DNA from: Aquabacterium sp.
Lineage (GTDB): Bacteria; Pseudomonadota; Gammaproteobacteria; Burkholderiales; Burkholderiaceae_C
Length of the DNA stretch: 64,000 bases
Assembly (NCBI RefSeq): GCF_036279655.1
Contig: NZ_DASUIT010000115.1
Coordinates: 10,214 to 74,213, forward strand
Direction of reading: 5' to 3'
Below the pieces are notes generated by a model. That model had not been told where the DNA came from, searched no databases, and was given only the letters and a program-made list of their open reading frames with translations. Shown piece by piece: positions 1 to 54,235 of this stretch; positions within the stretch are counted from its first letter, which is position 1; the number at the start of each line of letters is the position of its first letter. A program made the position numbers and the translations under genes.

Positions 1-1969
1 GATCGACTCGGGGGCTCTCGGTGGTGGGCGTCTGCTGTACGGCATCCATCGCATTTTGAACCAGATTGTGCACCACCTGGCGCAGCAGCGTGGCATCGCC
101 CTCGATGGTGGGCAGATCCGGCGCCATATTGACCTTGAGCAGGCCGCTGTCGATGGCCTGTCCGTACAGCGCCAGGACCTCGCTGACCAGGGTGTTGAGC
201 TCCAGCGGCGCCAGCCGGGACGTGGGCAGCCGGGCGAAGTCGCGGAACTCGTTGATCAGGGTCTTGAGTGACTGGACCTGGGCGACGATGGTGTTGACAG
301 AACGGGTCAGCAACTGCTGGCCGGGCTCGTCCAGCTTGTCGTGCAGCTTCATCTGCAAGCGCTCGGCCGACAGCTGGATGGGCGTGAGCGGGTTCTTGAT
401 CTCGTGGGCGACCCGGCGGGCCACTTCGCCCCAGGCCTTGGAGCGCTGGGCGGAGACCAGTTCGGTGATGTCGTCGAACACGATCAGGCGTGCACCGGCG
501 GGCAGATCGGCGCCGCGCACCAGCAGGGTCTGCGCTTCCTGGGGGGAACTGGGGTCGGTCAGCGGCCCCTCGAAGGATTCCTGCCATTGCTGCCGCTCAC
601 CGGGCTCGGGGTCGCTGTCGTAGGCCGCGAAACGGTCGTTGACGGCCTGCGCCAGGGCTTGCAGATTGGGCACCTCATGGAGCGCGCGGCCCGCATAGGC
701 AGACAAGGGGGCTCGCAGGATGCGCGTGGCCCCGGGGTTGACCGTGTCGATCAGCCCTTGGGCATTGAACACGATCACGCCCGAGGTGAGGTTGTCCAGA
801 ATGGTCTGCACGCGTGAGCGGGCGTTGTCCAACTGCTGGGTGCTGCGCTCCGCCTGGGTGCGGGCGTCGGCCAGTTGCTGGGTCATGGCGGCGAAGTCCC
901 GGGTCAGGCCACCGAGTTCATCCTTGGTGGTGAAGATGGCCTTGGGGCTCAGATCGCCCCGCGCCACCTCGCTGACGCCCTCGGCCAGCAGCACCAGGGG
1001 GCGGGCCAGTTGCTGGCCCAGGGTGGCGGCCAGCAGCAGGGCACCAAAGACCGCCAGCACCAGCGAGAGGGTGAGGGTGCCGATGTACATGCGCCGCAGG
1101 CCCTCGCGCCCCAGAGAGCGTTGCTGGTACTCGCGGTAGGCGTTCTCGACGTCCAGGGCGTTGCGCAGCAGCTTGGCTGGAATGGGTTGCTGCACCAGCA
1201 GGAAGCGCCCGCGGCTTTGCAGGCTGAAGCTGCGGTCGGGCATCCAGGCCAGCGCCATCACGCGCGGTTCCTTGCCATCGTCCAGCCCCTCGATCAGGGA
1301 CACCACGCCGCGGTTGCGGGCATCTTCGCGCCAGGAGGTGGGCACACGCCCGGCCGACAGGCCCAGATCGCTCTGCCCACCCACCTGGGTGGTGAGTGCA
1401 CCGGCCTCGCTGATGAGGGCGACACGGTCGGCGCCCAGTTGTTCGCGCAGGCGTTCGAGTTCCAGCAAAGGGGGCTGGCTGTCGGTGTCGGCCTGGCTGG
1501 GCAGGCCGGACATGCGCTCGGCGGCCAGGCGGGTCTTGTCGGCCAAGTCCTGGCTGAGGGTGTCCATGGTGGTGCGGCCCAGGCTGAGGCCCGCTTCGAG
1601 GGCGCCTTCCACGCGCACGTCGAACCAGGTCTCGATGCTGCGTGAGACGAACTGGTAGGACACCCCATAGATCAGCAGGCCAGGCACCAGGGACACCACG
1701 GCAAAGATGCCTGCCAGCTTGAGCAGCAACTGGCTGCCGAACTTGCGCCGCCGCACCCGCAGGGCCAGGCGCCCCAGGGCCAGCACGATGACCACCGCCA
1801 GCAGGGAGGCGATGGCCACATTGGTCCAGAACAGCCAGATGAAGTGGGGTTCGAAGCGTTCGCGGTTCTGCGTGGCGAACACCAGCATGAAGGCCAGCAC
1901 CAGGCCGGCCCCGAACATGGCCAGGCCCAGAACGATCCATGCCCAGCGGTTGGCCTTGAATGCGCTCAT
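1..1969 (-). CDS. ntrY: NtrY-like membrane sensor histidine kinase (HAMP/PAS/HisKA), truncated by the window edge
   Basis: Not in the ORF track; translated by hand. ATG at 1969-1967 overlaps the DUF4390 stop (ATGA). H-box AWGEVARRVAHEIKNPLTPIQLSAERL near 350-440, N-terminal transmembrane segments, and position downstream of rsmB-DUF4390. Confidence 0.85.
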   Translation of the reverse strand, partial: MSAFKANRWAWIVLGLAMFGAGLVLAFMLVFATQNRERFEPHFIWLFWTNVAIASLLAVVIVLALGRLALRVRRRKFGSQLLLKLAGIFAVVSLVPGLLIYGVSYQFVSRSIETWFDVRVEGALEAGLSLGRTTMDTLSQDLADKTRLAAERMSGLPSQADTDSQPPLLELERLREQLGADRVALISEAGALTTQVGGQSDLGLSAGRVPTSWREDARNRGVVSLIEGLDDGKEPRVMALAWMPDRSFSLQSRGRFLLVQQPIPAKLLRNALDVENAYREYQQRSLGREGLRRMYIGTLTLSLVLAVFGALLLAATLGQQLARPLVLLAEGVSEVARGDLSPKAIFTTKDELGGLTRDFAAMTQQLADARTQAERSTQQLDNARSRVQTILDNLTSGVIVFNAQGLIDTVNPGATRILRAPLSAYAGRALHEVPNLQALAQAVNDRFAAYDSDPEPGERQQWQESFEGPLTDPSSPQEAQTLLVRGADLPAGARLIVFDDITELVSAQRSKAWGEVARRVAHEIKNPLTPIQLSAERLQMKLHDKLDEPGQQLLTRSVNTIVAQVQSLKTLINEFRDFARLPTSRLAPLELNTLVSEVLALYGQAIDSGLLKVNMAPDLPTIEGDATLLRQVVHNLVQNAMDAVQQTPTTESPRVD

Positions 1970-2556
1970 CGGGCCAGGGAGATGGGGACGCGCCGCGCCA
2001 CGGCGATGGTCCACTCGCTCTGATCGCTCAGGCCGATCTGCAGAGGGCGGGGCAACTCGTCGCGGTCCAGCTGGAAGCTGAATTCGACGTAATGATCCCG
2101 TTCGTCGTTGGCGGGAGCCTGGTCCATGATGCGCCAGCGGCTGCCGCGCTGCATCACGGCCAGCGCCTCGCTCAGGCTGCCATAGTGCTGGCTGAGACCT
2201 TCCACCGAGACACGCCAGCGCCGGGTCAGGGGCTGGTAGGTCAGTCGCCAGTGGCGTTCGGCCACGGCGCGGGAGCGGTCATACCAGTACCAGCGTTCCC
2301 GAAACACTTCGGCCCGCGCCGAAAAGACCACGGCGACTCCTTTGAGCAGGGCGTCTTCGACGTCATGAGGCAGCTCGAAGCGCACGGCGTAGTTGAGCAG
2401 CAGCCCTTCATCGGAGCGCTGGACCTGGAGCTGGGAGAGTTCGACCTGGGTGCGACCTGTGCCAGCCAATTGCGCCCACGCGGACATGCCCACGCTGCCT
2501 GCGGCCAGGACCGAGGCAGCGCGCAGCAGGACGGTGCGGCGGCTGGGCACGTTCAT
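1966..2556 (-). CDS. DUF4390 family exported protein
   Basis: 196 aa with an N-terminal signal (SRRTVLL...AWA) and the motif LTYQPLTRRWRV; conserved position between rsmB and ntrY. Confidence 0.8.
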   Translation of the reverse strand: MNVPSRRTVLLRAASVLAAGSVGMSAWAQLAGTGRTQVELSQLQVQRSDEGLLLNYAVRFELPHDVEDALLKGVAVVFSARAEVFRERWYWYDRSRAVAERHWRLTYQPLTRRWRVSVEGLSQHYGSLSEALAVMQRGSRWRIMDQAPANDERDHYVEFSFQLDRDELPRPLQIGLSDQSEWTIAVARRVPISLAR

Positions 2557-3908
2557 TGTTCGGCAAGGGCGGGCTTGCGCAGCAGGGCGTAGAAAAAACC
2601 GTCACCCGAGACGGGAGTGGCCTCAGGCAGGGATGCGTCGGGATATTCGACCACAGGCAGCAGGTGACCTGGGGCGGGCAGGGCCTGGGCCTGGGGCTGT
2701 CGTTGCAAAAATGCGTCGATGCGCGCTTGTCCTTCCTGCTTGAAGAGCGAGCAGGTGCAGTACAGCAGCAGACCGCCGGGGGCCAGCAGGGGCCACAGGG
2801 CGTCGAGCAGGCGGTCCTGCGTGGCCGCCAGGGCATCGATGTCGCTGGCGCGGCGCAGCCAGCGCACGTCCGGGTGGCGCCGCACGATGCCCGAGGCGCT
2901 GCAGGGGGCGTCCAGCACGATGGCATCGAACCGTTGGCCATCCCACCACAGTGCGGTCTGCGAGGCGTCGGCAGCCTGGGTGCGGGCGCTCAGATGCAAG
3001 CGAGCCAGGGTCTGGTCGACACGCTGCAGGCGCTGGGCGTCGGTGTCGAGTGCCAGCATCTGCACGTCCAGGGCTTCGAGCAGGTGTGCGGTCTTGCCGC
3101 CGGGGGCGCTGCAGGCGTCCAGCACCCGGGCGCCGGCGGACAGGCCGGCTTGCAGCAGCAGGGGCGCGGCACGTTGGGCCGAGGCATCCTGCACGGACAC
3201 ATCACCCGCCTCGAAGCCGGGCAACTGGTGCACGGGCAAGGCCTGGTCCAGCACCAGACCGGCATCGCCAAAGGCGCGGCTGGGATGTCCCAGGTCCTGC
3301 AGTTGCTGCTGGTAGTCGGTCACCGATCGCTGGCGACGGTTGACGCGCAGCATCATGGGGGCGGCGTGCTGATTGGCGTCCAGCAAGGCCATCCAGTGCT
3401 CGGGCCAGTCCTGCTGCAGGCGCTCGATCCACCACAAGGGGTGGTTCCAGCGGGCTTGCGGGTCTTGCTGGGCCTGGGCGATCAAGGCATCGCGCTCCCG
3501 CAGGAAGCGCCTCAGCACGGCATTGACCATGCCGCTGGCTGGGCGCGCCTTGCGCTTGGCGGCGTCCACGGCCTGGTCGACCAGGGTGTGTGCAGGGTAC
3601 TCGGTGCCGCAGGCCAGGGCCAGGGCTGAGGTCAGTAGGCCATCGACCCAGGGGGCCGGCTTGCGGGCGACCAGCAAGCCTCGCAGCGCGCGGGCCAGGC
3701 CCAGGCGGCGCATGACGGCGAAGGACAGGGCCTGGGTGCCGGGACGGGCGGCGGCGGGGCAGGCATCCAGCGCGTCGGTCAGGGAGCGGCCGGACTGGAC
3801 CGCACTGACGGCATCGGCACAGTGCGCCAGCAGTTGCCACAGCGGCAAGGAGGCCGGTGTGCCCTGATGGGGGGCGGCAGAGGGAGAGCGACGGGGAGAG
3901 GCGGGCAT
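2553..3908 (-). CDS. rsmB: 16S rRNA m5C967 methyltransferase RsmB
   Basis: NusB-like N-terminal domain; motifs VQDASAQ, VLDACSAPGGKT, DAPCSASG, YCTCS. Start uncertain. Confidence 0.93.
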   Translation of the reverse strand: MPASPRRSPSAAPHQGTPASLPLWQLLAHCADAVSAVQSGRSLTDALDACPAAARPGTQALSFAVMRRLGLARALRGLLVARKPAPWVDGLLTSALALACGTEYPAHTLVDQAVDAAKRKARPASGMVNAVLRRFLRERDALIAQAQQDPQARWNHPLWWIERLQQDWPEHWMALLDANQHAAPMMLRVNRRQRSVTDYQQQLQDLGHPSRAFGDAGLVLDQALPVHQLPGFEAGDVSVQDASAQRAAPLLLQAGLSAGARVLDACSAPGGKTAHLLEALDVQMLALDTDAQRLQRVDQTLARLHLSARTQAADASQTALWWDGQRFDAIVLDAPCSASGIVRRHPDVRWLRRASDIDALAATQDRLLDALWPLLAPGGLLLYCTCSLFKQEGQARIDAFLQRQPQAQALPAPGHLLPVVEYPDASLPEATPVSGDGFFYALLRKPALAEQ

Positions 3909-3974
3909 GGCGCGCAGTCTAGTCCCTGCGCGCCGCTCTCCGGGCCCGCAGGGGCCCATTCTTCGCTTTCTTTG

Positions 3975-4838
3975 TCACGCGCCAAGAAAGTGACGGCGGT
4001 AGCGTGAGGGCAGATCGGCCAGGCGCATCATCATGGGCAGGTCGGCCGTGTTGAAGTCGGGGTCCCAGGCCGGGGCGCCCAGGATGCGGGCGCCGCAACG
4101 CAGATAGCCCTTGATCAGCGCCGGAGGCTCGACGGCCAGGCTGCGGTCCAGGTCATCGACCGGCAGGGGCAGGCGGGGGCGCACCTGCACGTCGATGGGC
4201 GCCAGGTGCGTGTGACGCAACTGCTCCCACAGGCTGGCCGCCACGTGGCCGCCATCGCGCATGCTGATGCTGGCGCAGCCGATCATGGTGTCCAGGTCAT
4301 TGCGCACCATGAACTCGGCCAGGGCGCCCCACAGGGCCATGATGACCCCACCCTGGCGGTGGTCGGGGTGGACGCAGGAGCGACCCAGTTCGACCATCTT
4401 GCCGCGCAGCGGACGCAGGCGCGTCAGGTCGAACTCGGTTTCGCTGTAGAGGCCCCCAATGCGCCGTGAGGCCTCGGGGGTCAGGACCCGGTAGGTGCCG
4501 ATGACCTCGCCCGGCTCGCCGTCCTCCTCGACCAGGCGCACCAGCAGGTGCTCGCAATAGGGGTCGAAAAGGTCGATGTCATGACCCTCGGGGCTGCCGG
4601 CTGGCACAGTCAGTCGTGCGCCCATTTCGTCGACAAAGACCAGGTGTCTCAGGCGTTGAGCCGCGAGAACATCCTGCGCAGTGCGTGCCCAAACGACCTC
4701 CAGTTTCTGGGGGGCTTGTTCAAGGCCAGACCCGAGGGAGCGACCGTGAAGTGACCTCCGGGACAGCGCGGGGCTGCGTGACAGGCTGGGCGTCAGGTCG
4801 GACAGAGGCAAGGTGGGCAAGGGCAGGTCCCGCATCAT
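3975..4838 (-). CDS. GNAT-fold N-acyltransferase, OlsB-like (ornithine/amino-lipid synthesis)
   Basis: Motifs AQRLRHLVF, DLFDPYCEHLLV, ELGRSCVHPDHR, PPALIKGYLRCGA, DPDFNTAD; Pho-box array upstream. Confidence 0.75.
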   Translation of the reverse strand: MMRDLPLPTLPLSDLTPSLSRSPALSRRSLHGRSLGSGLEQAPQKLEVVWARTAQDVLAAQRLRHLVFVDEMGARLTVPAGSPEGHDIDLFDPYCEHLLVRLVEEDGEPGEVIGTYRVLTPEASRRIGGLYSETEFDLTRLRPLRGKMVELGRSCVHPDHRQGGVIMALWGALAEFMVRNDLDTMIGCASISMRDGGHVAASLWEQLRHTHLAPIDVQVRPRLPLPVDDLDRSLAVEPPALIKGYLRCGARILGAPAWDPDFNTADLPMMMRLADLPSRYRRHFLGA

Positions 4839-4997: not shown

Positions 4998-6794
4998 ATG
5001 AGCATCCAGATATTTGGTCTGCCTGTTTCTCGCGGCGTGGCCATTGGCCGTGCTGTGCTGGTGGCATCCAGTCGGGTGGACGTTCCCCACCATTTCGTCG
5101 ACCCGGCCCGGGTGGACGAAGAGATCGCGCGCCTGATCGCGGCGCGGGACACGGTGGCCGCCGAATTCGACATGCTCAAGCACGATCTGCCCAGCGATGT
5201 GCCCACCGAGCTGGCCGCCCTGCTGGACGTGCACCAGATGCTGCTGCAGGACGAGGCCCTGATCGGCGCTGCGGTGGTCTGGATCGTCGAGCGTCACTAC
5301 AACGCCGAATGGGCCCTGTCGGCCCAACTGGAAGTGCTGGCGCGCCAGTTCGACGAGATGGAAGACGCCTATCTGCGCGAGCGCAAGGCCGATCTGGAGC
5401 AGGTGGTCGAGCGCTTGTTGCGCAATCTGGGGCGCGGTGGCGGCTTGCCGGCCATGCAGCCCCACCCGAGAGATTTCGGCGGCGACGATCCGTTGGTGCT
5501 GGTGGCCTCGGACATCTCGCCGGCCGACATGCTCAACTTCAAGCGCAGCGTGTTCACGGGCTTCGTGACCGATGTGGGGGGCAAGACCTCGCACACGGCC
5601 ATCGTGGCGCGCAGCATGGACATCCCTGCCGTGGTGGGGGCGCGCCAGGCCAGCAACCTGATCCGCCAGGATGACTGCATCATCATCGATGGCGATGCCG
5701 GTCTGGTGATCGTCGATCCCTCGCCCATCGTGCTGGAGGAGTACCGCTTCCGCCAGCGCCAGAGCGAGCTGGAGCGTGGTCGTCTGGCACGCTTGCGTCA
5801 TACCCCGGCGGTCACGCTCGATGGCGAGCGCATCGAGTTGCTGGGCAACATCGAGATGCCCGAGGATGCCCCGGGTGCTCTGGAGTCCGGCGCGGCGGGT
5901 GTGGGCCTGTTCCGCAGCGAGTTCCTGTTCATGGGGCGCGACCACGATGATCTGCCCGACGAGGAAGAGCAATACGACGCCTATCGCCGCGCGGTCGAGG
6001 GCATGAATGGCCTGCCGGTGACGATCCGCACGGTCGACATCGGTGCCGACAAGCCGCTGGAGGGCATGACGCCCAGCGAGTTGCGTCACGAATCTGTGCT
6101 CAACCCGGCGCTCGGCCTGCGCGCCATCCGCTGGAGTCTGGCGGAGCCCAGCATGTTCCGCCGCCAGTTGCGGGCCTTGTTCCGGGCGGCTCATCACGGG
6201 CCGGTCAAGATCATGATCCCCATGCTGGGCAGCCTTCACGAGATCCGCCAGACGCTGGAGCAGATCCACCATGTGCAGCGTCAGTTGGCGGAGTCGGGCA
6301 AGCCTTTCGGGCGGGCCGAGCTGGGCGCCATGATCGAGGTGCCGGCGGCGGCCCTGACCCTGCCCTTGTTCCTGCGGCATTTCGACTTCCTGTCGATCGG
6401 TACGAACGATCTGATCCAGTACACCCTGGCCATTGATCGCGCCGACGAGGCCGTGGCGCATCTGTACGATCCCTGGCACCCTGCCGTGCTGCATCTGGTG
6501 CACAACACCATCGTGCAGGCGCGTGCGGCAGGCAAGGGGGTGAGTGTGTGCGGTGAGATGGCGGGGGACCCGGCCTTCACCGAATTGCTGCTGGCCATGG
6601 GCCTGCGCAGCTTTTCCATGCATCCAACCCAGGTGGCGGCGGTCAAGCAGCGTGTGCTGCGGGCCGACACGCGTCGTCTGGCGTCCTTGCTGGCACCGGT
6701 GCTCGAGAGCGATGATCCCGAGCGGACGTGCCTGGAGCTGTTTGCCAGTGCGGGCTCACCTGCAGCGGCGCAGCGCCTCGCCTCGGCGGCCTGA
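4998..6794 (+). CDS. ptsI: Phosphoenolpyruvate-protein phosphotransferase (PTS Enzyme I)
   Basis: GGKTSHTAIVARS phospho-His motif, GVGLFRSEFLF, NPALGLRAIR, SIGTNDLIQY, VCGEMAGD. Confidence 0.95.
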   Translation: MSIQIFGLPVSRGVAIGRAVLVASSRVDVPHHFVDPARVDEEIARLIAARDTVAAEFDMLKHDLPSDVPTELAALLDVHQMLLQDEALIGAAVVWIVERHYNAEWALSAQLEVLARQFDEMEDAYLRERKADLEQVVERLLRNLGRGGGLPAMQPHPRDFGGDDPLVLVASDISPADMLNFKRSVFTGFVTDVGGKTSHTAIVARSMDIPAVVGARQASNLIRQDDCIIIDGDAGLVIVDPSPIVLEEYRFRQRQSELERGRLARLRHTPAVTLDGERIELLGNIEMPEDAPGALESGAAGVGLFRSEFLFMGRDHDDLPDEEEQYDAYRRAVEGMNGLPVTIRTVDIGADKPLEGMTPSELRHESVLNPALGLRAIRWSLAEPSMFRRQLRALFRAAHHGPVKIMIPMLGSLHEIRQTLEQIHHVQRQLAESGKPFGRAELGAMIEVPAAALTLPLFLRHFDFLSIGTNDLIQYTLAIDRADEAVAHLYDPWHPAVLHLVHNTIVQARAAGKGVSVCGEMAGDPAFTELLLAMGLRSFSMHPTQVAAVKQRVLRADTRRLASLLAPVLESDDPERTCLELFASAGSPAAAQRLASAA

Positions 6795-7874: not shown

Positions 7875-9779
<1,905 letters not shown>

Positions 9780-9870: not shown

Positions 9871-11811
9871 ATGAGGTGCTGGAAGTCATTTGTACAAGCT
9901 GGGTGCAGCGGGCGTCTGCTTGTCTGCTTGGCGCTGCTGTGCCTGTGGGCCGGGTGGATGGGGCGGGCACAGGCCAGTGCCCGCGTGCCACATCCCGAGC
10001 CCGTGGTCCAGCCTCTGAACATGGATCGCGGCAATGTGCTGGACCATGCCTGGATCGTCACGGACGATGGCGACCTGACACCTCCGGGTGATGCCGCGGC
10101 CTGGCAGGCCACGGGCCTGCCGCACATCTGGTCGCGCACCCACCCGGGCTTTGAAGGCACGATGTGGTACCGCATGCAGGTCTCCTTGCCTCGCAAGCCC
10201 TCGGTGATGTGGGCGGTCTACCTGCCTCGCGTGGTGATGAACGCGCAGGTGTGGGTCAATGGCGTGCCGCTGGCCTACACAGGTGTGATGACGCAGCCCG
10301 TGACCCGCAACTGGTATGTGCCCCTGCTGACCAATGTGCCCCCTCATCTGTGGCAGGAGGGGGTCAACGTCATTCACATCCGCGTGGCCAGTGGATTCGT
10401 GTCGCGCAATGGCCTGGCGCCTGTCCAGGTGGGGCCGCTGGACCATGTGGCCGAAAACTACAAGCACCGGGCCTGGGCCCAGGTGGATGGCGTGCATGGC
10501 GCCAATGTGGCCCTGCTGACGGTGGGGGCCTTCATGCTGCTCGTGTGGGTGCGTGATCGTGAGCAGTCGGCCATCGGCTTCATGGGGCTGGCGTCGGTGT
10601 TCTGGGCACTGGGCACGCTGGTGCAGGTGGCGCCCAACCCCTTGTTGACAGAACTGGTGTGGGAAAACATGGCCTACATCTTTTCCGTGCATTCTCAACT
10701 GCTGCTGTGTCTGTTCTTCTTTCGCTTTGCCGGGCAGCGTCGGGTGTGGGTCGAGCGCTTCGTGTTCAGTCTGATGGTCCTGATCCCCCTGTATGGCCTG
10801 TTGATGCCGCAGTTCGATCTGAACACGCTGTTCTTTGCCCTGATCTATGCCCTGGGTCTGTGGAGCATGGCCGAGTCGATCTGGCACGTGCTGCGGCATG
10901 GGCGGCGCGACGGTGGATGGCTGGTGGCAGGCTGCCTGATCCTGGTGCCTGCCGGTGCCCACGACGTCATGGTCCTGGCGGGGGCCTTGCCGTTCGACAG
11001 CTTGTACTGGCTCCATTACGCGGGGCCGATCATGATCGCCTGCAATACCGTCATCGTGGCCGGAGACCAGGCGCGCTCGCGTCGGGCGCTCAGTGAGCTC
11101 AACCGCACCCTGGCCGACCGCGTGGCCGAACGCGAGCGTGCCTTGAAGGGCAGTTTCGAGCGCCTGGCCGCACTGGAGCGTTCGCAGGCGGTGTCGGCGG
11201 AGCGCAGCCGCATCCTCAAGGACATGCACGACGGTGTGGGGGCGCATCTGACCTCGGCCCTGCGTCAACTGCAGGGGAGCGATCACGCGCCCGTGGATGT
11301 GCCCCTGGTCACCCAGACCTTGCGTGACTCGCTGGACCAGCTCAAGCTGTCCGTGGATGCGCTGTCGCTGATGCCCGGGGATGTCGAGGGCCTGCTGGCC
11401 AGTTGGCGCTTTCGTCTGGCGCCGCGCCTGAAGGCCGCCGGCATCGAGCTGGTCTGGGATGTCGATCGGCTGCCGCCATGGCCTGCAGGTCAGTCGCCGG
11501 CTTTGCGTCAATTGCAGTACATCCTGTTCGAGGGGCTCTCCAATGTGATGCAGCACTCCGGGGCCACGCGGCTGATCCTGTCGGCACGGGATCTGGAGCA
11601 TCACATCCGCGTCAGTCTGATCGACAATGGAAAGGGTTGGCTGCGTTCGAGCCCGTACGAGGGGCAGGGCCTGCAGACCATGCGCACGCGTGCCCAGGCC
11701 ATCGGCGCGCGGATGGAATTCCTGCCAGTGCCCGACGGGGGGCTGGAGCTTCGCCTGAGCTTGCCGATGCACGGCGAGCCAGGCTCTGTTGATATCGCTG
11801 TGACACCATGA
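9871..11811 (+). CDS. Sensor histidine kinase: periplasmic beta-sandwich, 7TM (7TMR-DISM-like) and NarX/UhpB-type core
   Basis: H-box ERSRILKDMHDGVG, N-box EGLSNVMQHSG, DNGKG and GQGLQTM; about seven hydrophobic helices. Start uncertain. Confidence 0.85.
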   Translation: MRCWKSFVQAGCSGRLLVCLALLCLWAGWMGRAQASARVPHPEPVVQPLNMDRGNVLDHAWIVTDDGDLTPPGDAAAWQATGLPHIWSRTHPGFEGTMWYRMQVSLPRKPSVMWAVYLPRVVMNAQVWVNGVPLAYTGVMTQPVTRNWYVPLLTNVPPHLWQEGVNVIHIRVASGFVSRNGLAPVQVGPLDHVAENYKHRAWAQVDGVHGANVALLTVGAFMLLVWVRDREQSAIGFMGLASVFWALGTLVQVAPNPLLTELVWENMAYIFSVHSQLLLCLFFFRFAGQRRVWVERFVFSLMVLIPLYGLLMPQFDLNTLFFALIYALGLWSMAESIWHVLRHGRRDGGWLVAGCLILVPAGAHDVMVLAGALPFDSLYWLHYAGPIMIACNTVIVAGDQARSRRALSELNRTLADRVAERERALKGSFERLAALERSQAVSAERSRILKDMHDGVGAHLTSALRQLQGSDHAPVDVPLVTQTLRDSLDQLKLSVDALSLMPGDVEGLLASWRFRLAPRLKAAGIELVWDVDRLPPWPAGQSPALRQLQYILFEGLSNVMQHSGATRLILSARDLEHHIRVSLIDNGKGWLRSSPYEGQGLQTMRTRAQAIGARMEFLPVPDGGLELRLSLPMHGEPGSVDIAVTP

Positions 11812-16721: not shown

Positions 16722-18017
16722 TCAGTCGTAGACCTCGGCGTTCGGGTCGGTGGCCTCCAGCTCGTAACTGGCCGCCAGCATGGCCAGTCGGCCCACCACA
16801 CCGTACATGTAGAAGCGGTTGGGTGCGCTGACGCCCGGTTTGGCGCCCAGGCGGGGCAGATGGGCCGGCTCGGCAAAGGCCAGCGGCACGAAGCTCGCGC
16901 CTGGGGCATTGAGGTTCTCGTCGATGCCGCGCTCGGCATGCACGCGATAGAAGCCCCCCACCACGTAGCGATCGATCATGTAGACCACGGGTTCGGCCAC
17001 GGCCTCGTTGATCTGCTCGTAGGTGGGCACGCCCTCCTGGATGATCACGCGGCTGACGGACTGCCCGTCCTTGACGACCGACATCTTGTTGCGGGCTCGG
17101 CGGTTCAGGTCGGCCACCTCCTTGGCATCTCGCACGGTCATGATGCCCATGCCGTACGTGCCGTTGTCGGCCTTGACGATGACAAACGGCTTTTCGTTGA
17201 TGCCGTATTCCTTGTACTTGCGGCGGATCTTGCCCAGCAGGGTATCGACCTGGGACTGCAGGCACTCGATGCCGGTGCCCTCCTGGAAGTCGACCTCGTC
17301 GCACGAGGCGTACATGGGGTTGATCAGCCAGGGGTCCATGCCCAGCAGCTTGGCGAACTTCTTGGCGACGTCCTCGTAAGCCTGAAAGTGCTGGCTCTTG
17401 CGGCGCACCGCCCAGCCCGCATGCAGCGGAGGCAGCAGGTATTGCTCGTGCAGGCCTTGCAGGATCTCGGGGATGCCGGCCGACAGGTCGTTGTTGAGCA
17501 GGATGGTGCAGGGGTCGAAATGCTTGAGGCCCAGGCGCCGCTTGGTGCGCACCAGGGGTTCGAGCGTGAGGGTGTCGCCATCGGGCAGGTTGAGCGTGGT
17601 GGGCTCGGTGATGGTTTCGTCCAGGGTGCCCAGGCGCACGTTCAGTCCTGCCACACTGAAGATCTGCACCAGTCGCGCCACGTTCTGCAGATAGAAGGTG
17701 TTGCGGGTGTGCTTTTCAGGGATCAGCAGCAGGTTCTTGGCCTCGGGGCAGATCTTTTCGATGGCGGCCATGGCGGCTTGCACGGCCAGGGGCAGCATTT
17801 CGGGCGTCAGGTTGTTGAAGCCACCGGGGAAGAGGTTGGTGTCCACCGGTGCCAGCTTGAAGCCCGCGTTGCGCACGTCCACCGAGGTGTAGAAGGGCGG
17901 TGTGTGCTCCATCCACTCCAGGCGGAACCAGCGCTCGATGGCCGGCATGGACTCCAGCATGCGCTGCTCCAGCTCGTTGATGGGGCCAGTGAGGGCGGTG
18001 ATCAGGTGAGGGACCAT
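16722..18017 (-). CDS. gshA: Glutamate-cysteine ligase (betaproteobacterial type)
   Basis: PPFYTSVDVRNAGFKLAPVDTNLFPGGFNNL, KADNGTYGMG, ENLNAPG. Confidence 0.93.
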   Translation of the reverse strand: MVPHLITALTGPINELEQRMLESMPAIERWFRLEWMEHTPPFYTSVDVRNAGFKLAPVDTNLFPGGFNNLTPEMLPLAVQAAMAAIEKICPEAKNLLLIPEKHTRNTFYLQNVARLVQIFSVAGLNVRLGTLDETITEPTTLNLPDGDTLTLEPLVRTKRRLGLKHFDPCTILLNNDLSAGIPEILQGLHEQYLLPPLHAGWAVRRKSQHFQAYEDVAKKFAKLLGMDPWLINPMYASCDEVDFQEGTGIECLQSQVDTLLGKIRRKYKEYGINEKPFVIVKADNGTYGMGIMTVRDAKEVADLNRRARNKMSVVKDGQSVSRVIIQEGVPTYEQINEAVAEPVVYMIDRYVVGGFYRVHAERGIDENLNAPGASFVPLAFAEPAHLPRLGAKPGVSAPNRFYMYGVVGRLAMLAASYELEATDPNAEVYD

Positions 18018-18134
18018 GGTGGGCTGCGGTGTTGTCGTTCGTCGATCCGGGCATTGTAGGAAGTTCGCGCTCAGGCTGCTTTGACTTTCGAGAAGACATG
18101 AAAAAGGCTGCCGGGGACGGTGCCACCCGATACA

Positions 18135-18411
18135 CGCTTTGTCGATGCAGCGCGGGGCGCGGGCTGAGCCGGCTTCCGGGCGGGCTTCAATGTGGGTGGT
18201 CCCGTCTGCGACGGGACGCCCCTCCGGTGCTCGCCATGGGCTTGTGCCGTGGAACTCGCTGCGCGGCCGACGCCGCTGCGCTCAAACAACCACGGCAGGT
18301 CAGATGACGAAGCGTGCTGCGCACGCCAAGCTCATGGCTGCGCTCCTCGGCACCCACAAGGCGCCCGCCCGAAAACCGGCTCAGCCCTTCTTCGCCCCGC
18401 TGATGGCATGC
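18135..18411 (+). repeat. Structured repeat element, copy A (~275 nt)
   Basis: Similar along its length to the reverse complement of 18558-18838; nested stems with compensatory differences. Confidence 0.9.
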
Positions 18412-18557
18412 CGAGACCGTCAAGGGCACGGCTAGCGCGCATTGAACGTGAAAGTCAGGGTGGCGGATGAATGAACTGGGAGCGGTCAACTCAAAGGTCT
18501 GTGTGCGTTCGACCATGGGTGCGAAAGCGCGTCGACCATGGAACGCCAGGACTTCTA

Positions 18558-18838
18558 CGCAGGCCACCAGTGGGGCGATCAAAGGGGTGAAGGGGCACGC
18601 GGCCGGGCGCCTTGTGGGTGCCGAGGAGCGCAGCCATGGGCTTGGCGCGCGTTAGCGCGCTTCGTGAACATGCTTGCCGTGGTTGTGTGAGTGCAGCGGC
18701 TGAAAGCCGCGGAGCGAGTTCCACGGCACAAGCCCATGGGGAGCACCACAGGGCAGTCCTGCCGCAGGCAGGACCACCCACATTGAAGCCCGGCCGCGTG
18801 CCCCTTCACCCCGCGCCCCGCGCTGCACCGACAAAGCG
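18558..18838 (-). repeat. Structured repeat element, copy B (inverted relative to A)
   Basis: Perfect 25-bp closing inverted repeat (18584-18608 with 18788-18812); conserved blocks shared with copy A such as GGGCTTCAATGTGGGTGGTCC, CCATGGGCTTGTGCCGTGGAACTCGCT and CATGGCTGCGCTCCTCGGCACCCACAAGGCGCCCG. Confidence 0.9.
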
Positions 18839-18856
18839 CTCCACAGTCAGCCGAGC

Positions 18857-18884
18857 AAAAAAAAGAGGCTGCCCGAAGGCAGCC
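18857..18884 (-). terminator. Intrinsic terminator of glnK-amtB
   Basis: GGCTGCC-ttcg-GGCAGCC followed by TCTTTTTTTT on the minus strand. Confidence 0.85.
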
Positions 18885-18918
18885 CCTGCAAGGGTCGGTT
18901 GAGTCAACCCGGATCAAA

Positions 18919-20469
18919 TCACTTGTGGTAGGCCGTCTCGCCGTGCGAGGTGATGTCCAGACCTTCGCGCTCTTCGTCCTCGGGGACACGCAGGCCGATG
19001 ACCAGGTCCACGATCTTGAAGGCGATCACGGAGACCACACCCGACCACACGATGGTGATCAGCACGCCCTTGAGTTGGATCCATACCTGGCTGGCGATGG
19101 AGTAGTCAGCGCCGCTGACCATGGCCACGGTGGTCCAGTCGGACACCAGGCTGGGGCCACCCAGGTTGGGCGAGTTGAACACACCGGTCAACAGGGCACC
19201 CAGGATGCCACCCACACCGTGCACGCCGAACACGTCCAGGGAGTCGTCTGCGCCCAGCAGCTTCTTCAGACCCGTCACACCCCACAGGCAGACCAGGCCA
19301 GCGACCAGACCGATGATCAGGGCACCGCCGACGCCGACGTTGCCGGCAGCGGGGGTGATGGCGACCAAGCCGGCCACGGCACCCGAGGCCGCACCCAGCA
19401 TCGAGGCCTTGCCCTTGAGCAGCGCTTCACCCAGGATCCAGCCCAGCACAGCCGCAGCGGTGGCCGCGAAGGTGTTGATGAAGGCCAGGGCAGCAAAGCC
19501 GTTGGCTTCCAGGGCGGAGCCGGCGTTGAAGCCGAACCAGCCCACCCACAGCAGCGAGGCACCCACCATGGTCAGCGTCAGCGAGTGAGGCGTGAACGCT
19601 TCCTTGCCGTAGCCGATGCGCTTGCCCACCATGTAGGCGCCCACCAGACCGGCGACAGCGGCGTTGATGTGCACCACGGTGCCGCCCGCGAAGTCCAGAG
19701 CGCCGTGTTGCCAGATCAGGCCGGCCTTGGCCGTCATGTCGGCAGCCACTTCAGCCGAGGAGTAGGCGTCGGGGCCCATCCAGAACCAGACCATGTGGGC
19801 CATCGGGGTGTAGCTGAAGGTGAACCAGATCACCATGAACAGCAGCACGGCCGAGAACTTGATGCGCTCAGCAAAGGCGCCCACGATCAGGCAGCAGGTG
19901 ATGCCGGCGAAGGTGGCCTGGAAGGCTGCAAACACGATCTCGGGGATGTAGACACCCTTGCTGAAGGTGGCGGCAGGACCGAAGGTGCCCGCAGCGTTGT
20001 CCCAGACACCCTTCATCATCAGGCGATCGAGGCCACCGATGAAGGCATTGCCCTCGGTGAAGGCCAGCGAGTAGCCGTAGATGAACCACAGCACGACGAT
20101 CAGCGAGAAGGTCACCATGACCTGCATCAGCACGGACAGCATGTTCTTGCTGCGCACCAGACCGCCGTAGAACAGGGCCAGACCCGGCACGGTCATGAGG
20201 ATCACCAGCAGCGTGGAGACCATCATCCAGGCGGTGTCACCCTTGTTGAAGGTGGGGGCCGCCGCAGGGGCGGGCTCGGCGGCCGAAGCGGCCTCCGCAG
20301 GGGCGGGCGCCGCTGCCGACGCAGCATCGGCGGGAGCCGCCGTGGATGCCGTGTCAGCGACAGCCGAAGCAGCGACCGGGACCGCAGTGGCGGTGTCCTG
20401 GGCGTGCGAGACGCCCAGCAGACCGAAGGCTGCGAGACCCAGTGCGATCGACGCAATGAGCTTTCTCAT
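18919..20469 (-). CDS. amtB: Ammonium transporter AmtB
   Basis: GDTAW, PGLALFYGG, DFAGGTVVH, LWVGWFGFNAGS, DDSLDVFGVHG, GLDITSHGE; long Ala/Pro-rich N-terminal extension after the signal peptide. Confidence 0.96.
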   Translation of the reverse strand: MRKLIASIALGLAAFGLLGVSHAQDTATAVPVAASAVADTASTAAPADAASAAAPAPAEAASAAEPAPAAAPTFNKGDTAWMMVSTLLVILMTVPGLALFYGGLVRSKNMLSVLMQVMVTFSLIVVLWFIYGYSLAFTEGNAFIGGLDRLMMKGVWDNAAGTFGPAATFSKGVYIPEIVFAAFQATFAGITCCLIVGAFAERIKFSAVLLFMVIWFTFSYTPMAHMVWFWMGPDAYSSAEVAADMTAKAGLIWQHGALDFAGGTVVHINAAVAGLVGAYMVGKRIGYGKEAFTPHSLTLTMVGASLLWVGWFGFNAGSALEANGFAALAFINTFAATAAAVLGWILGEALLKGKASMLGAASGAVAGLVAITPAAGNVGVGGALIIGLVAGLVCLWGVTGLKKLLGADDSLDVFGVHGVGGILGALLTGVFNSPNLGGPSLVSDWTTVAMVSGADYSIASQVWIQLKGVLITIVWSGVVSVIAFKIVDLVIGLRVPEDEEREGLDITSHGETAYHK

Positions 20470-20565
20470 GAGTGACCTCTTGGAAATGTATTGGGTGAAC
20501 AGACAAGGGGACTCCCCGCGCATCTCAAGCGCAGATCAGGAGTGCCCCAAAAAGGGGTGAAGCGC

Positions 20566-53916: not shown

Positions 53917-53993
53917 TGGTGCGGCTGGCAGGATTCGAACCCACGACCCCTTGGTTCGTAGCCAAGTACTCTATCCAACTGAGCTACAGCCGC
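53917..53993 (-). tRNA. tRNA-Arg(ACG), copy 2
   Basis: GCGGCTGTAGCTCAGTTGGATAGAGTACTTGGCTACGAACCAAGGGGTCGTGGGTTCGAATCCTGCCAGCCGCACCA; cloverleaf with encoded CCA. Confidence 0.97.
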
Positions 53994-54158: not shown

Positions 54159-54235
54159 TGGTGCGGCTGGCAGGATTCGAACCCACGACCCCTTGGTTCG
54201 TAGCCAAGTACTCTATCCAACTGAGCTACAGCCGC
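54159..54235 (-). tRNA. tRNA-Arg(ACG), copy 1
   Basis: Identical 77-nt sequence to copy 2. Confidence 0.97.

Follow-up and report, generated by a model that had tools for sequence, protein, structure and literature searches.

A palindromic, putatively mobile repeat behind amtB belongs to an uncatalogued Burkholderiales family whose arms are inferred to fold as single-stranded DNA

Background

REPINs are REP doublets that form hairpins and are mobilised by RAYT tyrosine (HUH) transposases. Like the enterobacterial BIMEs, they are extragenic and present in many copies per genome, the REP module being a single imperfect palindrome of 20-40 nt with a conserved 5' tetranucleotide. Other bacterial repeats, the MITEs that fold as long hairpins (Correia/NEMIS, ERIC/IRU, RUP, BOX), are non-autonomous derivatives of DDE transposons, usually 100-400 bp long, and have terminal inverted repeats, a defined short target duplication and a parent insertion sequence with the same ends. 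Bacterial class C group II introns are reported to insert directly downstream of intrinsic terminator hairpins, a "safe haven" target recognised by structure rather than sequence (Robart, Seo and Zimmerly 2007). Finally, integron attC, CTX phage attP and the parvovirus/AAV inverted terminal repeats bound by HUH Rep are folded single-stranded DNA sites of recombination or replication.

The locus studied here lies in a 64,000-nt stretch of Aquabacterium sp. DNA, hereafter the window. An earlier note, made from the sequence alone, had described two copies of a ~275-nt element with covarying stems, and proposed a mobile element moved in trans (for example by an HUH/RAYT-type transposase), a non-coding RNA family or a repeat-associated ribozyme. 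To address this question, we examined the locus, its relatives and the empty sites that the note had named as a test.

One composite element with two inverted arms

The observation itself is confirmed: each sequence feature that the note listed is present where it was placed. A repeat search gave three inverted repeats covering 18135-18389 against 18582-18838 at 81-86% complementarity, together with the two 25-bp closing stems. A MAFFT alignment of copy A with the reverse complement of copy B gave 86% identity, and the differences lie in the stems and are compensated. Folded as RNA, the two copies reach -168.2 and -175.8 kcal/mol (z = -7.4 and -7.8), with 0 of 200 shuffles as good; folded as DNA, all four strands give z between -6.7 and -9.2. 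In the window, the 27-nt and 35-nt conserved blocks occur only at these two places, and a covariance model of the family core (R1) finds only these two copies. The G-U pair noted in copy A is at T18332, where related metagenome sequences carry C.

However, these are not two independent copies of a 275-nt element. They are the two arms of one composite of about 704 bp, with terminal inverted repeats, a spacer and subterminal repeats, which sits directly behind the amtB terminator. Moreover, the different closing stems did not arise by covariation at this locus. The same A-type and B-type stems are paired in another contig (L117), so they are long-standing left-arm and right-arm variants of one composite element. 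The parts are as follows.

18135..18838 (.): whole composite element from terminal inverted repeat to terminal inverted repeat (arm A, spacer, arm B).
18135..18160 (+): left terminal inverted repeat, CGCTTTGTCGATGCAGCGCGGGGCGC, matching the reverse complement of 18813-18838 and the ends of other window-type copies, GAGCGCTTTGTCGGGGCAGCGCGGGGCGC.
18813..18838 (-): right terminal inverted repeat, CGCTTTGTCGGTGCAGCGCGGGGCGC on the - strand.
18135..18411 (+): arm A, with the A-type closing stem; the GGAACTCGCT motif is on the + strand, and the strand inferred to fold is the - strand (DNA fold z = -7.5 on + and -6.7 on -).
18203..18353 (+): conserved core of arm A, with helices Pa and Pb, hairpins P5 and P6 and conserved junctions; model R1 scores it 137.6 bits, E = 1.4e-28, over the full length.
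18161..18185 (+): 5' strand of the 25-bp closing stem of arm A, pairing with 18363-18387 (92% complementary); both mismatches are C.A on this strand, which is G.T on the other strand.
18363..18387 (+): 3' strand of the closing stem of arm A.
18412..18557 (.): central spacer of 146 nt with lower G+C; its outer parts (GGCCTGCG.AGAAG..CTGGC.T.CCA) are shared with other window-type copies.
18558..18838 (-): arm B, with the B-type closing stem; the GGAACTCGCT motif is on the - strand, and the strand inferred to fold is the + strand (DNA fold z = -9.2 on + and -7.8 on -).
18618..18770 (-): conserved core of arm B; model R1 scores it 135.5 bits, E = 3.8e-28.
18584..18608 (+): one strand of the perfect 25-bp closing stem of arm B, pairing with 18788-18812 (100% complementary).
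18788..18812 (+): other strand of the closing stem of arm B.
18839..18856 (.): outer flank between the right inverted repeat and the terminator T-tract, without counterpart in the empty sites; it probably belongs to the insertion as a degenerate subterminal repeat unit, as other copies carry 2-5 tandem 16-nt units here.
18113..18134 (.): outer flank on the other side (GGGGACGGTGCCACCCGATACA), either part of the insertion or a rearranged duplicate of the target; it is absent from the empty sites L232, L237 and L233-L236.
18857..18887 (-): intrinsic terminator of amtB, the insertion target, with stem GGGGCTGCC/GGCAGCC(TC) followed by a run of T; found by a terminator scan, with weak Rfam terminator-like matches, and present as the same hairpin plus T-run in the empty sites.
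18101..18112 (+): AAAAAGGCTGCC, a second copy of the 3' half of the terminator plus the T-run and a direct repeat of 18862-18873 (12 nt, 1 mismatch); it aligns with the single GGCAGCCCTTTTTCATG of the empty sites.
18919..20523 (-): amtB, the upstream neighbour (NCBIfam ammonium transporter, E = 1e-163); the order on the - strand is glnK-amtB, then the element, then gshA.
16722..18017 (-): gshA, the downstream neighbour (TIGR02049, E = 2.3e-187); its conserved upstream box AACTTCCTACAATG is intact and is also conserved in L232-L238.

The composite holds no credible gene. ORF 18612-18902 and a GAGGAG-N7-ATG in arm B look gene-like, but other subtypes lack the ATG, and variation is by paired changes and indels that do not respect codons. 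Divergent promoters were considered for the spacer, but a scan for sigma-70-like promoters found none there on either strand.

A large family in Burkholderiales

A DNA pattern built on the junctions alone returned at least 120 loci in metagenomes, with 59 true members and 48 distinct cores. A stricter pattern returned at least 111 loci in genomes, several per genome, in Acidovorax, Paracidovorax, Ottowia, Variovorax, Hydrogenophaga, Rubrivivax, Pelomonas and Piscinibacter. The family is found in Comamonadaceae and Sphaerotilaceae, and as both patterns fixed two junction motifs, these numbers are lower bounds that do not delimit it. Across the 231 loci, 109 of 110 neighbouring arm pairs show the same "+ then -" convergent arrangement, with 95-356 nt between the cores. 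"Solo" copies keep both terminal inverted repeats, so they are internal deletions, or keep the remnant of a second arm. In other family members the position of the spacer holds hairpins, REP-like palindromes or 1-3 kb of genes.

The family has no match among the RNA families of Rfam 15. The whole window gave only two tRNAs at the gathering score, and region 17900-19000 at E <= 10 gave only terminator-like and chance matches, none on the arms above noise. A blastn search with arm A gave no match in 72,556 plasmids or 50,697 phages, and two matches in viral contigs are coding-sequence false positives. A subtype-2 composite matched only unannotated stretches of chromid-size records, plus a 44-90-nt AAAGAAAGT hairpin module in Ralstonia and Pasteurella records. 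Thus no parent insertion sequence with the same ends was found in these collections, which leave out chromosomal insertion sequences. Literature searches by topic and by sequence motif found no description of the family.

Each arm has a long closing stem, helix P1, hairpin P2 and a three-way core made of Pa, Pb (which encloses P5) and P6, and the junction sequences are conserved: CCTGCGGTGCTCG, GGAACTCGCT, CGCTCARACAACC, GAGTCAG..ACGAAGC and CTGCGCTCCTCGGC. Covariation is very strong. In fact, 32 of 35 pairs show double changes, and 96.6% of cells are paired against 76.9% in shuffles, with 954 double-change cells against 227; 0 of 500 shuffles reach the observed pairing and slid controls reach at most 54%.

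The helices are almost purely Watson-Crick. G-U pairs are 12 of 4998 cells (0.2%), against 69 A.C, and a first alignment had given 9 against 43. The commonest loop of P2, P5 and P6 is C(TGC)G, which is c(GCA)g on the other strand, and GNA triloops closed by C:G number 70 on that strand and 1 on the GGAACTCGCT strand. d(cGNAg) is the classic, very stable DNA mini-hairpin (reported by Hirao, Yoshizawa and colleagues). Folding energy alone gives only a weak signal, as both strands fold almost equally well (mean difference 1.4 kcal/mol for cores and 4.9 for full arms), and the choice of strand therefore rests on mismatch and loop counts from related sequences. The strand that appears to fold is the complement of the one drawn in the earlier note.

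Insertion behind terminators

Is the element mobile? Seven syntenic relatives with 92-94% identical GshA (L232-L238) have a 121-245-nt amtB-gshA spacer without the element, and these empty sites show that the terminator was already there. Ten window-type copies each abut the T-tract of a different, unrelated terminator hairpin, and either end of the element can face the terminator. The ends carry tandem arrays of a 16-nt unit, which in other copies precede the short terminal inverted repeats. In four of about 110 composites (loci L160, L017, L182 and L166), 1-3 kb of unrelated genes lie between the arms; L160 and L017 share the same TetR-type neighbour on one side (the other side of L017 is the contig end) yet carry different genes.

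We found no consistent target-site duplication. Across 80 composites, the longest shared words and local alignments between the two flanks equal the controls, although, the exact ends being undefined, this comparison does not extend to duplications of 2-7 bp. Only the window (12 nt, 1 mismatch) and locus L004 (about 50 nt) show duplicated terminator sequence, so that long target duplications are rejected as a general feature. No mobilising enzyme was found, linked or otherwise: crude ORF clustering over the 231 loci, unreliable in high-G+C DNA, showed no recurrent linked gene. As to the note's statement that no cognate enzyme lies in the window, we can say only that base composition there is uniform. 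Local GC skew gave only 16 usable units for orientation relative to replication.

Orthologous copies in P. cattleyae and P. citrulli are 93% identical, and their differences cluster in Pa, Pb and P5 and are compensated. As for transcription, the RNA contigs examined (Logan) are unstranded. In P. sakaiensis the arms have the same depth as the neighbouring genes, with no peak, and no discrete abundant transcript was seen. In P. citrulli arm sequence is present at higher word depth than the flanks, but copy number and possible DNA carry-over confound this.

Interpretation

We propose, with only moderate confidence, that the element is one complete copy of a family of non-autonomous, composite palindromic repeats, inserted in this lineage directly behind the amtB terminator. 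The analysis directly establishes the family, its composite architecture and covariation, the Watson-Crick-only helices and strand-specific hairpin loops, the presence of the element here and its absence at the same site in relatives, the position of window-type copies next to terminators and the occasional carriage of genes between the arms. What we infer beyond this is that the arms fold as single-stranded DNA, the folding strand in each arm being the one complementary to GGAACTCGCT, so that on either DNA strand it is the 3'-side arm that folds. We further envision that an enzyme encoded elsewhere, a structure-specific nuclease, transposase or recombinase, recognises this fold together with the conserved junctions and subterminal repeats, and copies or moves the element into sites just behind terminator hairpins, where an insertion does little harm. 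An HUH-type enzyme is one candidate, not a finding. Gene conversion between copies would spread stem variants.

The earlier note's interpretation is thus partly supported. Selection or maintenance of a single-stranded fold, membership of a dispersed betaproteobacterial repeat family, the absence of the family from Rfam and the empty amtB-gshA site in relatives all hold, and of its three options the mobile element fits best. The RNA and ribozyme options are weakened by the near-absence of G-U pairs, the DNA-type triloops on one strand, the lack of a promoter and the lack of a discrete abundant transcript. Its proposal of a RAYT or other HUH-family enzyme (single-strand DNA nuclease/transposase) remains a guess.

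A structured RNA, although less likely, remains a live rival. In this view the arms would be genes or modules for a new non-coding RNA, such as a ribozyme, a protein-binding scaffold or a 3'-UTR stabiliser or insulator, selected at the RNA level and merely spread by the repeat element. In fact, five helices covary around strongly conserved unpaired junctions and asymmetric internal loops, and conserved unpaired junctions with variable stems are also the hallmark of functional RNAs. Arm sequence is present in RNA-seq contigs, and in P. citrulli the element lies inside an operon, between two ABC-ATPase genes, so it must be transcribed there. If both arms had to fold within one read-through transcript, that could also explain Watson-Crick-only pairing. 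Against this view, A.C mismatches are more frequent than G-U pairs, the loops are c(GNA)g triloops rather than the GNRA or UNCG types typical of RNA, and neither a promoter in the spacer nor an intrinsic terminator of its own was seen. The flat RNA depth in P. sakaiensis and the lack of any Rfam match point the same way. Moreover, subtype-2 centres are G+C-rich hairpins, and in subtype 2 one arm replaces the conserved internal loops with a perfect helix.

More unlikely still, the element could be a domesticated structural DNA element resembling enterobacterial BIME/REP clusters, a cruciform-forming or protein-binding site that insulates transcription units, binds gyrase or nucleoid proteins, or marks recombination hot spots where gene cassettes are swapped. 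The position of copies between genes and directly behind terminators, the different genes between the same arms beside one TetR-type gene in L160 and L017, the Watson-Crick-only pairing expected for DNA and the retention of orthologous copies in two Paracidovorax species with their helices kept paired are consistent with this possibility. However, the closest relatives of the window organism do without it at this site, copy number and position vary between genomes, and many copies are deletion derivatives or have one degenerate arm, which looks like decay rather than maintenance by the host. A merely local inverted duplication of a hairpin-rich intergenic sequence with chance compensation, suggested only by the two copies in the window, is refuted by the hundreds of homologous arms at unrelated loci in at least two bacterial families, by the shuffles and by the empty orthologous sites.

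A farther-reaching view, which the data leave possible but doubtful, is that the arms are the recognition structures of a so far undescribed way of moving DNA, in a terminator-targeting, gene-carrying element whose branched hairpin ends resemble parvovirus terminal repeats and are read as single-stranded DNA by an unknown structure-specific enzyme; or, alternatively, that they encode a new large ribozyme or RNA-protein scaffold. Either way this would be a new class, abundant in plant-pathogenic and environmental Burkholderiales.

The family has one of the strongest covariation signals one could hope for, yet it is absent from Rfam, from plasmid annotation and from the searchable literature, although it occurs many times per genome in well-studied bacteria, including the Paracidovorax citrulli/avenae group, Variovorax, Piscinibacter sakaiensis and Rubrivivax. 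If the single-stranded DNA reading holds, it points to an unknown structure-reading enzyme and a new route for small gene cassettes, including an OLD-family nuclease gene, to move; it is a natural example of terminators used as safe insertion sites; and it is a warning that covariation alone does not prove an RNA, and that G-U content and loop type should be checked. If the RNA reading holds, it is a new large structured RNA class. In practice, these repeats also break assemblies and create spurious ORFs in these genomes.

Comparison with known systems

As in REPINs and BIMEs, the unit is extragenic, occurs in many copies per genome and is a pair of inverted modules around a spacer, with singlets that look like decayed doublets, pairing kept by compensated changes and no enzyme encoded inside; the REP hairpin too is thought to be read in single-stranded DNA. 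However, each module here is about 275 nt with six or more helices, a three-way junction and long conserved junctions, and the element adds terminal inverted repeats, 16-nt subterminal repeat arrays and sometimes carried genes. No RAYT gene, which in REPIN systems is a single-copy Y1 HUH gene flanked by the repeats in the same genome, has been linked to it. With the MITEs it shares non-coding sequence, terminal inverted repeats without a transposase gene, dispersal in intergenic regions, presence or absence between strains and co-transcription with neighbouring genes, but MITEs are not known to show a conserved multi-helix architecture whose stems differ completely between lineages. IS200/IS605 derivatives (PATE) have subterminal hairpins on the same strand at both ends and no terminal inverted repeats, whereas here the ends are inverted repeats and the inferred folds lie on opposite strands.

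Insertion just downstream of intrinsic terminators is shared with class C group II introns, as a behaviour and not as membership. In fact, no Intron_gpII or group-II-D1D4 match was found at E <= 10, so that domains I-VI with the domain V catalytic hairpin were not detected; there is no reverse transcriptase, and the architecture is two inverted arms.

Finally, the comparison with folded single-stranded DNA sites is one of analogy, not homology. attC sites are 57-141 nt, lie in direct arrays separating cassettes next to an integrase gene (intI) and have defined extrahelical bases, whereas the arms here are 275 nt and inverted, and no array was seen. No phage or plasmid context was found in the searches above, and the arms are not at the physical ends of a linear genome. 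As in these sites, structure is conserved while sequence drifts, the inferred fold is strand-specific and pairing is Watson-Crick. Like an AAV terminal repeat, each arm is a branched hairpin, a long stem enclosing smaller palindromes, placed as an inverted repeat at each end of the unit.

The repeat pair between amtB and gshA

The earlier note described two copies, A and B, of a folded element of about 275 nt in inverted orientation, and this observation holds: the sequence is as described. An inverted-repeat search found three collinear blocks joining the two copies at 81-86% complementarity and, inside each copy, a 25-bp closing stem that is 92% complementary in A and 100% complementary in B. 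When the copies are aligned head to head they are 86% identical, and the differences in the hairpins and the closing stem are compensated. In fact, each copy folds far below shuffled controls, both as RNA (z = -7.4 and -7.8) and as DNA (z = -6.7 to -9.2 on all four strands). Searches with the conserved blocks, and with a covariance model built later, found only these two copies in the 64-kb window. The elements lie in a 900-nt gap between amtB and gshA, organized as follows.

16722-18017, - strand: gshA
18101-18112: second copy of the 3' half of the terminator hairpin plus T-run, GGCAGCCTTTTT, matching 18862-18873
18135-18389 and 18582-18838: regions joined by the three inverted-repeat blocks
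18135-18160 and 18813-18838: outer ends, inverted repeats of each other
18864-18887: intrinsic terminator of amtB
18919-20523, - strand: amtB

The window (1-64000) lies on one replichore and shows no compositional island, since the GC skew is positive in 30 of 32 bins of 2 kb and G+C is even at 62-71%. Elsewhere in it, two identical 74-nt tRNA genes lie 242 nt apart on the - strand, at 53920-53993 and 54162-54235 (66.2 bits each); their anticodon loop reads CUACGAA, so they are probably tRNA-Arg(ACG).

A large family of related elements

To determine whether this pair belongs to a family, we first searched Rfam 15, which gave no match even at E <= 10, and then plasmid and phage collections, which gave no match to arm A (copy A). 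However, a DNA pattern made only of two junction motifs (GGAACTCGCT, a gap of 65-95, GCGCTCCTCGG) returned at least 120 loci in metagenome contigs. Of these 120, 59 are true relatives with 48 distinct cores, and their stems are often completely different in sequence but still complementary, around the same junctions. A stricter pattern returned at least 111 loci in species-representative genomes, with several loci per genome. Both patterns fixed two motifs, and these counts are lower bounds. The carriers are Acidovorax, Paracidovorax (citrulli, avenae, cattleyae, oryzae, valerianellae), Ottowia, Variovorax, Hydrogenophaga, Verminephrobacter and Simplicispira among the Comamonadaceae, and Rubrivivax, Pelomonas and Piscinibacter sakaiensis among the Sphaerotilaceae. 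The window itself comes from an Aquabacterium-like organism, whose best named GshA relatives are 90-92% identical.

The unit is a composite

A profile of the core found 288 arms in the collected loci, and 109 of 110 neighbouring pairs are arranged "+ then -", with 95-356 nt between the cores. The window pair has exactly this form. Its outer ends are inverted repeats, and in other window-type copies the ends are preceded by 2-5 tandem copies of a 16-nt unit, in mirror orientation at the two ends. "Solo" copies keep both ends, so they are internal deletions, and in P. citrulli one arm has lost only its core. The A-type and B-type closing stems of the window recur together in another contig (L117), and the two arms are therefore old, differentiated left and right arms. 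In the commonest subtype one arm is canonical, while in the other the conserved internal loops are replaced by a perfect helix. Thus, the interpretation in the earlier note is only partly supported: a maintained fold is supported, but the unit is a composite and not a 275-nt element.

In two metagenome runs (X1 and X5), contigs corresponding to window 18170-18384 join the two strands of the closing stem of arm A and skip the 213 nt between them, which is either a natural deletion derivative that keeps only the closing hairpin, like the remnants seen in loci L062 and L111, or an assembly artefact at the inverted repeat. A+T-richer palindromes such as GCTGCTAGCGCTTGTGCATCAAGCGCTA recur on both sides of subtype-2 composites (for example about 230 nt outside each core in locus L047, and in L201, L109 and L054), so that these elements may extend further out than the arms. 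The hairpin module CTTTCTTT..AAAGAAAG at the outer end of subtype-2 arms (L164, 547-590) also matches Ralstonia pseudosolanacearum megaplasmids among the plasmid records (H3-H8) and, at 91% identity over 44 nt, three 260-325-kb "Pasteurella multocida" plasmid records from mixed cultures, which may be contamination or a separate small repeat.

Covariation of the helices

On 70 representatives that are less than 88% identical to each other, RNAalifold predicts 35 pairs, and 32 of them show double changes. We then took 150 arms (147 distinct) from genome loci and aligned them to the covariance model (R1). In this alignment 96.6% of cells pair, against 76.9% in column shuffles (0 of 500 shuffles reach this value), and 954 cells carry double changes, against 227 in shuffles. 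Sliding the partner by 1-3 columns drops pairing to 32-54%. Fitting the alignment to the model inflates pairing somewhat, but the MAFFT-only alignment shows the same picture. The fold is beyond reasonable doubt.

RNA or DNA, and which strand

Three results point away from a classical RNA. First, wobble pairs are almost absent: there are 12 G-U against 69 A.C in 4998 cells, and the independent alignment gives 9 against 43 once a single invariant G.U column is set aside. Almost all changes are Watson-Crick to Watson-Crick, and the small excess of A.C means that the strand tolerating G.T is the complement of the GGAACTCGCT strand. Second, the loops are strand-specific. The commonest loop of each of three different hairpins (P2, P5 and P6) is C(TGC)G, which is c(GCA)g on the other strand, and in 71 representatives GNA triloops closed by C:G number 70 on that strand and 1 on the GGAACTCGCT strand. 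These loop and mismatch counts come from related sequences and are not independent events. d(cGNAg) is the classic exceptionally stable DNA mini-hairpin, whereas stable RNA hairpins favour GNRA and UNCG tetraloops.

Third, no transcription signals were found. There is no sigma-70-like promoter in the spacer between the arms, and the centres of other subtypes are G+C-rich hairpins. In unstranded RNA-seq contigs of P. sakaiensis the arms have the same depth as their neighbours; in those of P. citrulli the arm depth is higher than that of the flanks, but there the element is multi-copy and lies inside an operon. In P. sakaiensis 201-F6, a short stretch next to a composite that carries genes (locus L166, 101-200) has a depth of about 15,500, against about 350-1,400 around it, and is a very abundant small RNA or tRNA. 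Folding energies of the two strands differ little. We therefore read the arms as single-stranded-DNA folds, which remains an inference.

Insertion behind terminators

Seven contigs from relatives with 92-94% identical GshA keep the order yifB, glnK, amtB, gshA, kup, or the amtB-gshA part of it on the shorter contigs. Their amtB-gshA spacer is only 121-245 nt long and consists of the terminator hairpin, a T-run and then the gshA upstream box. In the window the same hairpin and T-run are followed at once by the element, and the 3' half of the hairpin plus the T-run (GGCAGCCTTTTT) appears again on the far side. Ten window-type copies abut the T-tract of ten unrelated terminator hairpins, always with the terminator reading toward the element, and either arm can face the terminator. 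One copy, L004, is flanked by a direct duplication of about 50 nt at about 85% identity (9690-9745 and 10320-10375), covering the whole 3'-UTR and intrinsic terminator, which is far longer than usual transposon target duplications. However, long duplications are not general, because across 80 composites the two flanks share no more than unrelated flanks do.

Genes between the arms and possible conversion

Four composites hold 1-3 kb between the arms. In L160 (Hydrogenophaga sp. XSHU_21, 1900-4149) the arms enclose an OLD-family AAA ATPase/nuclease gene with a TOPRIM domain (PF13175, PF20469) plus a small gene of 156 aa, which looks like a defence system; in L017 (480-1175) they enclose an unrelated 231-aa gene, and in L182 and L166 small lipoprotein-like genes. 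L160 and L017 carry these different genes at what appears to be the same site, since they share the same TetR-type gene on one side (the other side of L017 is the contig end). One repeat family can also be nested inside another: the centre of the composite L142 (Ottowia beijingensis, 5990-6110) holds an inverted pair of Pseudomonas-type REP sequences (GGGAGCGGGCTTGCCCGCGATG ... CATCGCGGGCAAGCCCGCTCCC). Finally, orthologous copies in two Paracidovorax species are 93% identical, with nearly all differences clustered in Pa, Pb and P5 of the core and all compensated. This is what replacement of the core by gene conversion from another copy would give.

What the element most likely is

To explain these results we propose that the most likely reading is a non-autonomous composite repeat element. 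The family, its composite form, its paired helices and its presence at a site that is empty in relatives rest directly on the sequence comparisons, whereas the folding of the arms as single strands of DNA, their handling by an enzyme encoded elsewhere and homogenisation by conversion are inferred. In this view the arms must fold as single strands, most likely DNA, to be handled by such an enzyme, and the element settles behind terminators, can carry genes and is homogenised by conversion. A new structured RNA remains a live alternative, although we consider it less likely, and a DNA structural element used by the host is less likely still; chance is refuted.

The logic of the element is closest to that of REPINs and hairpin-forming MITEs. 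It shares its target choice with class C group II introns, and its branched inverted ends recall parvovirus terminal repeats, yet it fails defining tests of each of these families.
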